From an uncultured Actinomycetes bacterium (GTDB taxonomy: Bacteria; Actinomycetota; Thermoleophilia; RBG-16-64-13): a stretch of DNA of 36,240 nucleotides. The position numbers and the translations under genes were made by a program. The stretch covers positions 1 to 36,240 of the forward strand of contig CAVPLM010000022.1 of NCBI GenBank assembly GCA_963706025.1, given 5' to 3'. The notes below the pieces were generated by a model. That model saw only the letters and a program-made list of their open reading frames with translations. It had not been told where the DNA came from and made no database searches. Positions within the stretch are counted from its first letter, which is position 1; each line of letters starts with the position of its first letter. Below, piece after piece: positions 108 through 27,027 of the stretch.

Positions 108-201
108 TGGCGGAGAAGGAGGGATTCGAACCCTCGAAAGGAGAATTCACTCCTTCACTCGCTTAGCAGGCGAGCGCCTTCAGCCTCTCGGCCACTTCTC
201 C
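108..201 (-). tRNA. tRNA-Ser(GCT)
   Basis: GGAGAAGTGGCCGAGAGGCTGAAGGCG-CTCGC-CT-GCT-AA-GCGAG, long variable arm, GGTTCGAATCC T-arm and encoded CCA. It lies 4 nt upstream of tRNA-Arg, the common Ser-Arg tandem. Confidence 0.97.
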
Positions 202-22648: not shown

Positions 22649-22723
22649 GGCGGCAGTCTAACAGGTCGCGCGCCCAGCGGGCGAGGTCACTGGCTGATCT
22701 GCTGCGGGGTTGCTAGGCGGCGG

Positions 22724-22770
22724 GGGCGGCCACGTCGCAGGGCGGCCACTCGCAGGGCGGCCACGCCGCA
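22724..22770. repeat. 15-16-bp tandem repeat (x3) in the divergent intergenic region
   Basis: GGGCGGCCACGTCGCA, GGGCGGCCACTCGCA, GGGCGGCCACGCCGCA. Confidence 0.85.
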
Positions 22771-22874
22771 GGGCTGACCGGCTGCGGTGCCGCCTTGGTT
22801 TCAACGGCGGCGCCGATGGAGACAACGATTCTGGACGACGCGCTTGCAGCGGACCCAGAGGAGGACTTCGACGG

Positions 22875-23579
22875 ATGAACGGGGAGCAAGGCCAGCCCAT
22901 GGCAGAGACCGATGCGGCCGGCCGTGGAGAGAGCAGCGGCACTGAGAAGCACATCGGCCGGCGGGCCTTCATCGGGCTGATCGTGGCAGGTATAGCGGCG
23001 CTCTTCGTGGGCAAGGAGATCCTTCCCCGGATCCCCACGAGCATCAAGGGCTCGGTGGGCGGAGGAGAGTTCCGCATCAACACGATCGTCCCTGGTGAGG
23101 ATTTCGACCCGAACACCTGGCGTCTGACCGTGGACGGCCTGGTCCGAAACCCGCTCACCCTCACCTTCGCCGAGTTCACCGATCTCCCTCAGGTGGAACG
23201 CACCCGGGACTTCTACTGCGTCGAGGGCTGGGGTGTGCCGGAGGTTAAGTGGAAGGGGGTCACCGTGCGCGAGTTGATGGAGCGCGCCGACATCGACCCG
23301 TTGGCCACCCACCTCGTCTTCGACTCCAACGACGGCGTGTACACCGAGTCGGTGACGCTCGAGGAAGCGCTACGTCCGGACACGCTCCTGGCCCACGAGA
23401 TGAACGGGGCCCCTCTCGAGCCTGGCATGGGACAGCCGCTGCGCTTGGTCCTGCCCGGGAGTTACGCCTACAAGAACATCAAGTGGGTGGTGCGGATGGA
23501 AGCGGTCGCCCTGGGTCCCGAAGGATACAAGGGCTATTGGGAGCAGCGTGGCTACCCGGCCGACGCCACCATCGGCTGA
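22875..23579 (+). CDS. Sulfite-oxidase-family molybdopterin oxidoreductase (MsrP/YedY-like) with a Tat anchor
   Basis: IGRRAFIGL Tat motif, WRLTVDGLV, DFYCVEGW (Mo-ligating Cys), WKGV, GQPLRLVLPGSYAYKNIKW, GYWEQRGY; RBS before ATG22875. Confidence 0.9.
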   Translation: MNGEQGQPMAETDAAGRGESSGTEKHIGRRAFIGLIVAGIAALFVGKEILPRIPTSIKGSVGGGEFRINTIVPGEDFDPNTWRLTVDGLVRNPLTLTFAEFTDLPQVERTRDFYCVEGWGVPEVKWKGVTVRELMERADIDPLATHLVFDSNDGVYTESVTLEEALRPDTLLAHEMNGAPLEPGMGQPLRLVLPGSYAYKNIKWVVRMEAVALGPEGYKGYWEQRGYPADATIG

Positions 23580-24303
23580 GCCGCCACTACCGGTGCCACC
23601 ATCGGCGGAGCCGCCACGGATCCCCCGTTGGGTCCTGGCCGAACGTCTCGCGCACTGGCTCTACGCGCTGTTCTTCCTCATAGCCTTCGTCAGCGGGCTG
23701 CTCATGTGGATACCCGCCACTCGGAGCTGGCTGGGCGGGGCGAGGGAGAGTGTCGCCTTGCGCCACGGGGTCACGGGTTTTGCCATGGTCCTCATACCGC
23801 TGGCTTTGATGCTGATCGCCGACCGGAGACGTCTGGCGCATGACGTCCGCGAGATCGACATGTGGGATGCAAACGACCGCCGTTGGTTCTGGGCGGCGAT
23901 GAAGGGCCGCACGCTGCGGGGCGGTGACATGCCGGCCCAGGGCAGGCTCAATGCCGGCCAGAAGGCCAGCGCCCTGCTGGTGGCGGCCATGGCCCTGGGC
24001 TTCGCCGTCACCGGGAGCCTGCTGCTGGCGAAGGCCGGACTGCCGGCGTGGCTGGTGTCGCGCGCACTGTGGTTGCATGGCTTCCTGGCCATCGCCGGAG
24101 TGGCCGTGCTCGCGGGCCACCTGGCCCACGTCTTCCTAACCCGTCATGGCCGCGGCTACCTGAGCTCGATGATCAGAGGAGCACTTCCGGAGGAGATCGC
24201 CCGCGAGCGCCACCGCACCTGGTGGGAGAAGCACCAGGCAGGGGACAACCCACCGGCAGGGGTTCGCCCACCGGCAGGGAGTCGCCCACCGGCCGGTTCG
24301 TGA
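23548..24303 (+). CDS. Cytochrome b (FdnI/Ni-hydrogenase b-type), four TM helices
   Basis: ERLAHW, LRHGVTG, QGRLNAGQK, WLHGFLA...GHLAH, SMIRG...RERHRTW. The start could be GTG23593. Confidence 0.88.
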   Translation: MATRPTPPSAEPPLPVPPSAEPPRIPRWVLAERLAHWLYALFFLIAFVSGLLMWIPATRSWLGGARESVALRHGVTGFAMVLIPLALMLIADRRRLAHDVREIDMWDANDRRWFWAAMKGRTLRGGDMPAQGRLNAGQKASALLVAAMALGFAVTGSLLLAKAGLPAWLVSRALWLHGFLAIAGVAVLAGHLAHVFLTRHGRGYLSSMIRGALPEEIARERHRTWWEKHQAGDNPPAGVRPPAGSRPPAGS

Positions 24304-24349
24304 TGTAGTAACCTACCCCTTCCTGAACCTCAGCGAAGGGACGTATCCG

Positions 24350-24823
24350 ATGCAAGTCACCCGCGGCAGCGTCGTGAGTTTCAACTACACGCTCACCGAT
24401 GACGAAGGGACCATCCTCGACTCCAGCGAGAACTGCGATCCTCTGGCGTATCTGCATGGCTACGACAACATCATCCCCGGTCTCGAGGGCGCCCTCGAGG
24501 GCGCCGCGGCCGGGCACAAGTCCCAGGTGGTGGTGGAGGCGGCCGATGCGTATGGCGAGGTCGACGAGGAGGCCATCTTCGAAGTCGCGAGAGACCAGTT
24601 CCCCGAGGGCGTGCCGGTGGAGCCGGGAATGCAGTTCCTGGGGGAGACCCCAAGCGGCGACGCGCCCTTCAAGGTGGTGGCCGTGAACGAGACCGGGGTG
24701 GTGGTGGACGCCAATCATCCCCTGGCCGGAAAGAGGCTGCACTTTGACGTGGAAATCGTGGACGTGCGACCCGCTTCCGACGAGGAGTTGGAGCTCGGTT
24801 ATCCACAGTCGGACGAGGAGTGA
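24350..24823 (+). CDS. slyD: FKBP-type peptidyl-prolyl isomerase SlyD (short form without a His-rich tail)
   Basis: YTLTDDEG.ILDSS, PLAYLHGYDNIIPGLE, AYGE, VDANHPLAGKRLHFDVEI. Confidence 0.93.
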   Translation: MQVTRGSVVSFNYTLTDDEGTILDSSENCDPLAYLHGYDNIIPGLEGALEGAAAGHKSQVVVEAADAYGEVDEEAIFEVARDQFPEGVPVEPGMQFLGETPSGDAPFKVVAVNETGVVVDANHPLAGKRLHFDVEIVDVRPASDEELELGYPQSDEE

Positions 24824-24833
24824 GGCTGAGCCG

Positions 24834-25307
24834 ATGGGCGGAGTGGTTCATACATCACGGATAACCATCACCAGGGAGAACGGTCCGACCCGCAAGGCCG
24901 TCATCGAGGGCTTCTGCGAGCCTATCTACTACGGGGTGCACGGAGGGATCAAGAAGTTCTACCGAGTGGATCCTGAAGTGGAGCATGCCGCCACGCTGGA
25001 TCACATCGTGGGGGCGGTCGGTGGCTGAATGATGGGGACACTGGCCACGGCGCTGGCCAGCCGCAAGATCCCTACGCACACCGACCGCTACGAGGCGAAT
25101 GTGGAGGGCGACATCGAAGACGTCGATGGTGTGCTGCGCATCTCCCGGATCCGGGTCGCCTACAAGCTCAAGGTGCCGGCGGGCAAAGCGGAGGAAGCGC
25201 GTGAGGTGTTCTCCGGCTACATCGAAGGCTGCCCGGCCGCCATGAGCGTGTGTGGATGCATCGATATCAGCGATACTCTGGAGATAACCGAGCTCGAGGG
25301 CAGGTAG
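24834..25307 (+). CDS. OsmC-like selenoprotein (Sec at codon 65, TGA 25026-25028), 157 aa
   Basis: ORFs ending at 25028 and starting at 25029 are one frame: ...TLDHIVGAVGG-U-MMGTLATAL...EGCPAAMSV. TGA occupies the first catalytic Cys slot of OsmC/Ohr and a SECIS-like hairpin follows. Confidence 0.85.
25041..25060 (+). promoter_or_regulatory. Bacterial SECIS-like hairpin
   Basis: CTGGCCA-CGGCGC-TGGCCAG: a perfect 7-bp stem starting 12 nt after the UGA, with G at loop position 2. Confidence 0.7.
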
Positions 25308-25344
25308 GGGCGTTTTCGCGGCGGCGGTTCTTGTGAGGTGCGTG

Positions 25345-27027
25345 ATGAGGTCTCGACGGAATGCACTGCTGTGCTTCTTGGTGTTCTCCTTGCTCACCGG
25401 CGGGCTTCTCTCGGCCGGCTGTGGATCCGGCCTGGAGAGAGTGCAACTGGAGAGCGGCCCCATCACCGGCGCGTCAGAAGACGTGCAGGGAGCGCAGATC
25501 TCGAGCTTCAAGGGCATTCCTTACGCGGCGCCTCCGGTGGGCGACCTCCGCTGGAAGCCGCCGCAGCCGGTGGCGTCCTGGACGGAGCCCCGGGCTTGTA
25601 CCTCCTTTGGGCCGGCGTGCCCACAACCGGCTCAGACAGAGATGTTCTATCTGGACGTGGGCGCCACCGACGAAGACTGTCTGTATCTGAACGTGTGGTC
25701 GCCGGCAAAGTCGGCCGACGAGCGGCTGTCGGTGATGGTGTGGATCCACGGGGGCAGCTTTGAAACTGGATCGGGATCGATGGAGGTCTACGGGGGGCAG
25801 AACCTGGCTGCCAAGGGAGTGGTGGTGGTCACCATCAACTACCGGTTGGGGCCGCTCGGATTCCTGGCCCACCCTGCTCTTTCGGCCGAATCGGCCCTAG
25901 GGGTGTCGGGCAACTACGGCCTGCTCGACCAGATCGCGGCCCTGCAGTGGGTGAGGAACAACATCGCCGGCTTCGGCGGCGACCCGGCCAACGTGACCGT
26001 CTTCGGCGAATCGGCCGGTGCCATCAGCATCCTGGACCTGCTGGTGAGTCCGTTGGCTGAAGGGCTCTTCGACCGGGCCATCGCTCAGAGCGGCATCCTC
26101 CTCGACTACGGATTCGGGGTGTCTACCACAGGGAGGCTCGAGGGCGCGGAGGCGGCGGGCGAGGCTTTCGCCGAGGGGCTCGGCATCGAAGGGTCGGACG
26201 CGGTCGAAGGTGACGCGGCCGCGCAGATGCGGGCCAAGACCCCGGACGAACTGCTGGCCGCGGCGGCGTTGGTCGGCGAGGACTCCGGCCTCATGGAGCA
26301 GGGCCTTGTCTGGAAGCCCGTGGCCGATGGCTATCTACTACCGGACCTACCGACAAGGCTCTGGACGGCGGGCAAACAGCACGGTGTCCCGTTGCTGATC
26401 GGTTCCAACGCCGACGAAGGCAATGCGTTCACGGCTGGACTCACCGTCTCTCCGGCCGAGTATGAGGCGCAGATGCGGCAGATCTTTGGAGACTACGCGG
26501 ACGAGGCGCTCGCGCTCTACCCCGTCGAGAGCCCCGAGGACATCACCCCCATGTTCAGTCGTATGCTTACCGAGGTCGGCTTCGCTTCCACGGCTCGTTT
26601 CGCGGCCCGAGCCATGAGCGCGCTCGGGGCTGGGACCACCGCACCGGCCGGGTCTACCGGCGAGGCAAGCTCACAGGCGGCTCCGGCGTATCTATATCAG
26701 TTCACGAGGGTCCCGCTCGGCAACGCCTTGGGAGCCTTCCACGGGGTGGAGATCCCATACGTGTTCGGGAACGCCGACCTGTTTGCGGGACTGGGGGAGA
26801 TCGAGCAGATCGACTTCGATCTGTCGGAAGCGATCATGGGCTACTGGACCCGATTCGCGGCCACGGGCGATCCCAACGGCGAGGGCGCGGTCCCCTGGCC
26901 CGCCTACGACGAGCGGTCGGATGAGCACCTCGAACTCGGCGACACGGTTCTGCAGGGCATCCTTCTGTACAAGGAGGCCTGCGACCTGGCCGACCAGGTG
27001 AGAGGGGTCGACCGGGCAGTGGAATAG
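25345..27027 (+). CDS. Type-B carboxylesterase/lipase lipoprotein (alpha/beta hydrolase)
   Basis: Lipobox LSAGC, FKGIPYAAPPVGDLRW, EDCLYLNVW, WIHGG, GESAG nucleophile, GSNADEG, GAFHGVEI. Alternative start GTG25333. Confidence 0.93.
   Translation: MRSRRNALLCFLVFSLLTGGLLSAGCGSGLERVQLESGPITGASEDVQGAQISSFKGIPYAAPPVGDLRWKPPQPVASWTEPRACTSFGPACPQPAQTEMFYLDVGATDEDCLYLNVWSPAKSADERLSVMVWIHGGSFETGSGSMEVYGGQNLAAKGVVVVTINYRLGPLGFLAHPALSAESALGVSGNYGLLDQIAALQWVRNNIAGFGGDPANVTVFGESAGAISILDLLVSPLAEGLFDRAIAQSGILLDYGFGVSTTGRLEGAEAAGEAFAEGLGIEGSDAVEGDAAAQMRAKTPDELLAAAALVGEDSGLMEQGLVWKPVADGYLLPDLPTRLWTAGKQHGVPLLIGSNADEGNAFTAGLTVSPAEYEAQMRQIFGDYADEALALYPVESPEDITPMFSRMLTEVGFASTARFAARAMSALGAGTTAPAGSTGEASSQAAPAYLYQFTRVPLGNALGAFHGVEIPYVFGNADLFAGLGEIEQIDFDLSEAIMGYWTRFAATGDPNGEGAVPWPAYDERSDEHLELGDTVLQGILLYKEACDLADQVRGVDRAVE

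Follow-up and report, generated by a model that had tools for sequence, protein, structure and literature searches.

A predicted selenocysteine-containing OsmC/Ohr-fold protein encoded across an in-frame UGA in an uncultured Thermoleophilia bacterium

Does a TGA in the middle of a short, conserved gene end one protein and precede another, or does it encode selenocysteine (Sec)? This question is raised by a locus of an uncultured bacterium of the Thermoleophilia (Actinomycetota), found in a 36,240-nucleotide stretch of DNA (contig CAVPLM010000022.1 of assembly GCA_963706025.1) that was analyzed as a whole and is hereafter called the window. All coordinates below are window positions unless another contig is named. 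The gene in question lies on the plus strand at 24834–25307 and would encode an OsmC-like protein of 157 residues, provided that its one in-frame TGA (25026–25028) is read through. An initial annotation, made from the letters of the window alone, had proposed that a selenoprotein is hidden here. Our follow-up makes it very probable, on comparative sequence evidence, that this UGA encodes Sec and that the locus is a real selenoprotein gene, as predicted. In what follows, we describe the reading frame, the homologues, the downstream hairpin, the Sec machinery of the genome and the fold of the protein, and then weigh this reading against its alternatives.

The reading frame and its in-frame TGA

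Read-through translation of 24834–25307 yielded a single frame of 157 codons, closed by a TAG stop at 25305–25307, in which the only in-frame TGA corresponds to residue 65 in the context GAVGG-U-MMGTL. In a listing of open reading frames (ORFs) under genetic code table 11, this frame is cut into two pieces (24744–25028 and 25029–25307), the same two fragments that the initial annotation had joined in frame over a single TGA. The junction holds, as homologues share the same starting Met and align over residues 1–157, and the coding sequence (CDS) is further supported by a Pfam match and by its fold. The later Cys-Pro (CP) motif that had been pointed out is likewise present as Cys133-Pro134 (25230–25235, plus strand), where Cys133 is the presumed resolving cysteine. 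Within the homologue alignment P134 is invariant and C133 nearly so, and the pair aligns with the VCP/GCP of Ohr and OsmC.

The TGA was also looked up outside the source assembly, in line with the proposal to confirm it in reads. Contigs from two public runs belonging to different studies span the codon without a difference. Specifically, record 1 of run X1 (977 nt) covers 24300–25129 with two deviating letters and record 9 of run X2 (831 nt) covers 24300–25052 with eight, all of them elsewhere than at the TGA. Because the contigs of both studies cover the codon unchanged, the TGA is not an assembly slip. The same bin, whose contamination is 7.31%, contains a second copy of the whole locus (L045, G000:C10:303-3773, matching window positions 23334–26804). 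This copy is 97.0% identical to the window over 3471 collinear bases without gaps, has the TGA as well, and most likely represents a second strain in the same bin rather than a paralogue.

Codon 65 among homologues

A search of the protein database produced 827 matches among 861 candidates, and the composition given here is that of the 120 best listed. The majority of these (100) are fragments of 89–111 amino acids that cover 57–60% of the query, and the four C-terminal fragments that were aligned all start at Met66. The 20 longer proteins are printed with either Cys (9) or Trp (11) at column 65. From a library at 50% identity we retrieved 581 proteins at E ≤ 0.001. The best 150 of these representatives comprise 31 N-terminal fragments terminating at the TGA, 22 C-terminal ones beginning directly behind it, 46 other partial sequences and 51 proteins that span column 65, in which the residue is Cys (38), Trp (1) or another one (12). 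Of the 37 representatives that extend to column 133, 34 have Cys there. The two halves are listed separately in the databases, in keeping with the earlier proposal of a 157-residue Sec redox enzyme that standard annotation splits in two, and the read-through frame behind that proposal is supported.

Codons were then compared at the level of DNA. Among 61 related genomes, 22 had a match, with one in-frame TGA at codon 65 in 20 places of 18 genomes, while a sister family at 33–38% identity has TGC or TGT at this codon in five places of four genomes. All 80 loci from species-representative genomes of several phyla (best 80 of 318 relatives kept) carry TGA at codon 65, as do 78 of the 80 loci from metagenome contigs (best 80 of 443 relatives kept), where the other two carry TGC and none carries TGG. 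Taken together, TGA is found in 158 of the 160 closest loci and TGG in none, and Cys codons (TGC/TGT) occupy codon 65 in seven loci in all, five of them distant and two of them close relatives from metagenomes. UGA and Cys are paired at this catalytic column, and amino-acid conservation is strong on either side of the TGA. By their record titles, these sequences derive from freshwater, sediment, soil and groundwater assemblies. The initial annotation had expected Cys or Sec at residue 65 of homologues and had named a non-Cys residue such as Trp as the outcome that would speak against Sec; the codons agree with the former. Because TGG is absent from the 160 loci and the proteins printed with Trp reach 92% identity to TGA-carrying loci, the Trp of the database entries is most likely a TGA translated as Trp by gene callers.

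A distant relative from another family of the same class (L041, G039:C1:671670-672128; 35% identity) has a TGA at the same column in a host genome that bears selA. The sequence downstream of its TGA differs, and it may be an independent or older Sec form. In two of the genomes (L046/L049 in G019:C8 and L036 in G034:C28), tblastn splits the copy into two pieces whose frame changes near residues 134–139, which points to a frameshift or assembly error close to the Cys-Pro motif in bins that are 65% and 66% complete.

A constrained hairpin downstream of the UGA

The initial annotation had described a perfect 7-bp stem whose loop follows the UGA by 19 nt. This candidate selenocysteine insertion sequence (SECIS) was confirmed at 25041–25060 (plus strand). 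Its 5' arm CTGGCCA (25041–25047) pairs perfectly with the 3' arm TGGCCAG (25054–25060) around a 6-nt loop, CGGCGC (25048–25053), with G at positions 2 and 3. The spacing of 19 nt between UGA and loop corresponds to 25029–25047, and the hairpin folded alone has an energy of −11.5 kcal/mol. Across many phyla, 158 of the 160 closest loci have the TGA and the hairpin together in the same position.

Synonymous entropy was calculated for the 4- and 6-fold codons of 149 unique TGA-form CDSs. Codons 69–75 had a mean of 0.51 (range 0.09–1.04, n = 6), compared with 1.73 (range 0.85–2.33, n = 67) for the other codons of this kind. Pairing was scored in 132 distinct 63-nt segments (alignment A3), and 96.5% of the cells of the 7-bp stem are paired. 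The outer stem pair shows double changes from CG to UA in 13 of the 132 sequences, one inner pair shows a UA double change, and alternatives by wobble (UG/UA, GC/GU and AU/GU) are common. The identical seven pairs were predicted independently by RNAalifold. Controls with shuffled columns and slid registers were scored on a whole two-helix structure, which is 90.8% paired in register against 23.8–53.9% in slid registers. None of 500 column shuffles matched its observed pairing or covariation, a control that is inflated, the sequences being related and the structure being derived from one of them. The early-loop G is retained in loop variants such as CGGYGC, GGUC, GGUUC and similar. The general expectation set out for a bacterial SECIS, that it follows the UGA closely on its 3' side and has an early G in its loop, is borne out by a hairpin that is conserved in 132 sequences and in which synonymous change is suppressed.

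The folding energies of the TGA forms (162 distinct segments) all lie between −7.9 and −16.0 kcal/mol. In both close Cys forms, GTCC stands for GGCC, which breaks the stem and leaves −5.0 kcal/mol; over the same stretch the five distant Cys forms, whose genomes are very rich in GC, range from −4.8 to −16.5 kcal/mol. An extended lower stem, suggested by the single-sequence fold (A3 columns 11–16 with 47–52), was rejected: it is only 84% paired, one of its pairs is unpaired in 59 of the 132 sequences, and its third codon positions are without synonymous constraint. A scan of the window with Rfam at gathering scores gave two tRNAs only and no match to a SECIS family. One metagenome contig (L154, positions 1015–1077) differs in each of the two stem arms (GCA ... 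TCA, Ala to Ser). When its bases are paired by hand, a 7-bp hairpin displaced by one register is still possible and would amount to a restructured SECIS.

The last Gly codon, the TGA, the ATG ATG and the hairpin make up a near-invariant block of DNA at 25023–25058 (plus strand) that is common to several phyla in alignment A3. In runs X2, X6 and X20, which are metagenomes or metatranscriptomes, contigs from other organisms share with the window nothing but 33–36 nt within these positions and diverge on both sides. The contig of a relative in the RNA run X20 matches only 25025–25058 with 11 letters before the match, and the UGA is not bridged.

Selenocysteine machinery and genetic code

The same genome (G000) was searched for Sec machinery with curated cut-offs. 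The initial annotation had named selA, selB, selC and selD as the genes to expect, and all four were recovered above their cut-offs (selA 506 bits, selB 304, selD 388 and tRNA-Sec 79), with the true tRNA-Sec on contig C3. The selD gene (L001, G000:C5:742679-743602, minus strand) itself encodes a selenoprotein with one TGA (SHGSG-TGA-ACKLG), followed by a 7-bp hairpin with a GGAC loop that begins 20 nt after the UGA. Its geometry is like that of the OsmC-type hairpin, with a stem of equal length and a GG-containing loop at nearly the same distance (19 nt in the latter), and the two are presumably read by the same SelB. However, SelD belongs to an unrelated protein family and is a positive control for SECIS geometry only. 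Of the 61 related genomes, 45 have selA. The gene occurs in all but one of the TGA-form genomes (17 of 18, the exception being 66% complete) and in none of the four genomes with Cys forms only (completeness 97–99%), a co-occurrence that is descriptive, as related genomes are not independent.

TGA is the stop codon of five of the eight neighbouring genes with Pfam support and is internal to none of them, which excludes a general reassignment of this codon. The two tRNA genes of the window are at 30–103 and 111–201 (minus strand), with Rfam tRNA scores of 71 and 59.9 bits. The one at 111–201 also has a sub-threshold match to tRNA-Sec (41.5 bits) and is read as an ordinary long-arm tRNA.

Family, fold and catalytic positions

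The OsmC-like identity assigned at the outset is upheld by the Pfam OsmC domain (PF02566; residues 56–142, 29.5 bits, cut-off 27.5) and by matches to the OsmC/Ohr fold. The NCBIfam OsmC model gave about 15 bits against a cut-off of 85.8, and NF041052 (OsmC_like_Se) gave 14.9 against 95, which leaves the protein outside that family. An AlphaFold2 model based on 19 aligned homologues (predicted local distance difference test score 87.5, predicted template modelling score 0.81) has residue 65 inside the long helix 55–75 and Cys133 at the break between helices 119–132 and 134–138. Foldseek returned 53 matches from the PDB at E ≤ 0.001, and the matches listed are OsmC, Ohr or OsmC-like proteins. 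The best is the OsmC of T. thermophilus (1ukk_A, E 7.9e-07, TMq 0.55). The fold is that of the Ohr/OsmC hydroperoxide reductases (1ukk, 1qwi/1nye, 6d9n, 1n2f and 6eb4; Foldseek probability 1.00, template modelling scores 0.48–0.62).

In OsmC and Ohr, the first Cys is peroxidatic and the second Cys is resolving. A profile search of the PDB with alignment A4 at E ≤ 10 gave weak matches (Ohr 6d9n, E 0.0061; OsmC 1ukk, E 0.099) in which column 65 stands opposite the first Cys of both structures and C133-P134 opposite their VCP/GCP. The claim that the UGA falls on the catalytic Cys of OsmC/Ohr within a helix is supported by this alignment and by the position of residue 65 in helix 55–75. The conservation of the codon, the relatives with a Cys form, the alignment to 6d9n and 1ukk and the contigs of two studies all support reading 25026–25028 (plus strand) as Sec at the position of the first, peroxidatic Cys. 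The layout of the two catalytic residues, the first within a long helix and the second in a Cys-Pro where a helix breaks, is shared with the Ohr/OsmC enzymes. On the other hand, the present protein would have Sec for the first Cys, is only 10–22% identical in sequence, and has a distinct and strongly conserved stretch of 55 N-terminal residues. In the OsmC/Ohr superfamily a catalytic Arg and Glu activate the peroxidatic Cys, and the homologue alignment contains the invariant residues R20, D56 and E95 as possible counterparts; in its N-terminal part G34, H36, G37, I39, F42 and Y43 are invariant too.

Two other OsmC-like genes of the same genome are without stops (L210, G000:C3:213037-213387, and L211, G000:C3:666642-666992), so the organism also has Cys-type OsmC paralogues. 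Their NF041052 scores are weak (38.7 and 22.8 bits, respectively). No member of NF041052 over the cut-off was found in the genome, the top score being the 38.7 bits of L210.

Proposed decoding and catalysis

We propose that the locus is one gene for a 157-residue thiol peroxidase of the OsmC/Ohr fold, in which Sec would take the place of the first (peroxidatic) Cys. SelB would bind the 7-bp SECIS hairpin inside the CDS and then deliver Sec-tRNA(Sec), which would read the UGA at 25026–25028. The genome would supply selA, selB and selC for this purpose, together with a selD that appears to be a selenoprotein in its own right. Catalysis would start at U65, whose selenolate would react with a hydroperoxide to give a selenenic acid, Cys133 of the CP motif would resolve the selenenic acid into a selenenylsulfide, and a thiol reductant would then reduce the selenenylsulfide. 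Within this scheme, it is the insertion of selenium, the peroxidase chemistry, the substrate and the reductant that we infer.

Alternative explanations

Several observations weigh against a Sec-containing OsmC/Ohr peroxidase. In the protein records taken alone, Trp is printed at column 65 of 11 of the 20 full-length homologues, and 12 of the 51 spanning representatives have neither Cys nor Trp there. The 66-nt stretch that includes the hairpin has a z of −1.01 and is folded as well or better by 29 of 200 shuffles; as its folding energy is unexceptional in GC-rich DNA (65% GC), the case for the hairpin rests on comparison. Energy is also non-discriminating between forms, as the distant Cys forms reach comparable stability in four of five cases (−9.7 to −16.5 kcal/mol). 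Covariation is limited, with the core GGCC/GGCC pairs nearly unvarying, the outermost stem pair is broken in 19 of the 132 sequences, the shuffle controls are inflated as described, and the proposed lower stem is unsupported. The Pfam OsmC threshold is passed by 2 bits only, the A4 profile links to solved OsmC/Ohr structures are weak (E 0.006–0.1), and a profile search of the PDB with alignment A1, fragments included, yielded nothing at E ≤ 0.01. Finally, no conserved reductase or partner gene was found beside the gene in 146 loci.

The printed Trp residues would speak for local recoding, read-through or an alternative code, by which the UGA would stand for tryptophan or some other standard amino acid. 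We regard this as highly improbable: TGG is absent from all 160 loci, the Trp forms are very close to TGA loci, TGA stops five of eight neighbouring genes, the true sense codons at the column are Cys codons, and the TGA forms co-occur with Sec machinery. There is just as little to recommend two small genes, in which a 64-residue ORF would run to the TGA and a 92-residue ORF would start at the adjacent ATG by stop-start coupling (TGA-ATG-ATG), with the OsmC domain split between them. ATG ATG does follow the TGA directly in 148 of the 149 unique CDSs, and public gene calls list the halves apart (31 N-terminal and 22 C-terminal fragments in the best 150; fragments in 100 of the 120 best matches). 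However, such a break would remove exactly the catalytic Cys position, and the hairpin with its suppressed synonymous change lies at SECIS distance. Moreover, the TGA forms track selA (17 of 18 genomes, against none of four for the Cys forms), and since C-M-M is found at this position in the close Cys forms, the two Met residues reflect conservation of the protein. An interrupted table 11 frame in a metagenome-assembled bin with 7.31% contamination might also be the product of a nonsense mutation, a pseudogene or an error of sequencing or assembly. This explanation is already contradicted and has next to no chance of being correct, given that independent assemblies have the same TGA in 158 of the 160 closest loci, that the second copy of the same bin and contigs of two separate studies have it too, and that amino acids are strongly conserved on both sides.

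The remaining alternative accepts Sec and concerns the enzyme, which might not be a hydroperoxide peroxidase but some other member of the OsmC superfamily, with a role in thiol/selenol redox chemistry or in the handling of sulfur. An example would be a YhfA-like redox protein, to which the conserved 55 N-terminal residues would give a different specificity. This would be consistent with a Pfam OsmC match restricted to residues 56–142 and barely above threshold (29.5 against 27.5 bits), with NCBIfam OsmC and OsmC_like_Se scores of about 15 bits, with invariant N-terminal residues that are without counterpart in the Ohr/OsmC profile matches, and with the lack of a conserved peroxide-related partner nearby. 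We nevertheless consider it unlikely, as both catalytic positions of OsmC/Ohr are retained (Sec or Cys in the helix and the later Cys-Pro), OsmC and Ohr structures are the first fold matches, and a MarR-family regulator lies upstream in 17 of the 146 loci. The reading that we prefer is that of a UGA-encoded Sec in a thiol peroxidase of the OsmC/Ohr fold.

Genomic neighbourhood and phylogenetic distribution

Upstream of the selenoprotein gene, a molybdopterin oxidoreductase gene (22710–23579, plus strand) overlaps a cytochrome b561 gene (23548–24303, plus strand), and we take the two (22710–24303) to be an MsrP/MsrQ-like pair. An FKBP-type isomerase gene (24350–24823) is located just upstream of the selenoprotein gene and a carboxylesterase gene (25333–27027) downstream of it. 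Across the 146 loci, the genes found upstream include those of MarR-family proteins on the same strand (17), TetR (13) and cytochrome b561 (12), and the largest neighbour cluster occurs in 18 loci and is without a Pfam match. The Ohr repressor OhrR is a MarR-family protein, and the upstream MarR gene may be a faint echo of the Ohr/OhrR arrangement.

A quick tree with midpoint root and SH-aLRT (approximate likelihood ratio test) support was built from 84 rows, namely 79 distinct genome-locus proteins, the window copy and four distant forms. Fifteen Actinomycetota copies, the window copy and one unlabelled row formed one clade with support of 96. This clade is nested among Sec forms of delta-proteobacterial lineages, Acidobacteriota and Nitrospirota, with short internal branches, and the Cys forms of the sister family are distant by about 3.8 changes per site. 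The topology fits a spread of the Sec gene between phyla, and as it comes from a quick, midpoint-rooted tree only, no donor or direction is claimed.

Relation to described OsmC-like selenoproteins

OsmC-like selenoproteins have been in print since 2005, when Zhang, Fomenko & Gladyshev predicted them from the Sargasso Sea (PMC1088965), in agreement with the remark of the initial annotation that Sec-containing OsmC-like families had been predicted before. The table of that paper lists three sequences under COG1765 (YhfA) with the motif UxxT. A table of the 2008 GOS study (PMC2398784) has pfam02566 with the same motif and the figures 5, 3 and 161. The family is also listed in two reviews (PMC9312934, 2022; PMC13188914, 2026), the latter of which names a selenoproteome study of groundwater metagenome-assembled genomes. 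Among the papers retrieved on OsmC-like selenoproteins, an experimentally studied Sec-containing OsmC is the subject of no title or abstract opening.

As described in 2005, the family shares with the present gene the PF02566/OsmC domain, a UGA at the redox Cys, the existence of Cys homologues and a downstream SECIS hairpin with G in a small apical loop. The two differ in their motif, which is UxxT there and U65-M-M-G-T69 here, with the Thr at +4 (UxxxT), and in their frequency, as the family was rare in the marine data whereas Sec is predicted here in 158 of the 160 closest loci. NCBIfam NF041052, named 'OsmC-related (seleno)protein', likewise treats an OsmC-related family as a selenoprotein, but the present protein scores far below its cut-off. 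Model-based annotation therefore fails to rescue the clade, and the gene is split.

By the broad definition given in these publications (OsmC domain and Sec at the redox Cys), the gene is an OsmC-like selenoprotein gene. We further put forward, tentatively and as somewhat short of probable, that it belongs to a distinct and undescribed subfamily other than the marine UxxT one. Such a subfamily would be Sec-dominant (158 Sec to 2 Cys), with its own N-terminal module of 55 residues, a near-invariant UGA-AUG-AUG-hairpin cassette of 33–36 nt, horizontal spread, and no curated model, so that it is split in databases. It may extend over Actinomycetota, delta-proteobacterial lineages, Acidobacteriota, Nitrospirota and Methylomirabilota of sediments and soils.

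Implications

The biology suggested here is of a known kind, that of a thiol peroxidase with Sec for the peroxidatic Cys and a standard bacterial SECIS. Its main value lies in annotation. Most of the best database entries are half-genes (100 of 120 are C-terminal fragments, and 53 of 150 representatives break at the UGA), and in others a Trp is given for what is most likely a TGA in the DNA. A dedicated model would mend hundreds of entries from several phyla and would bring a Sec-dominant peroxidase into surveys of the selenoproteomes of sediments and soils. In turn, the near-invariant block of UGA and hairpin would provide a compact natural SECIS for comparing SelB recognition among phyla.

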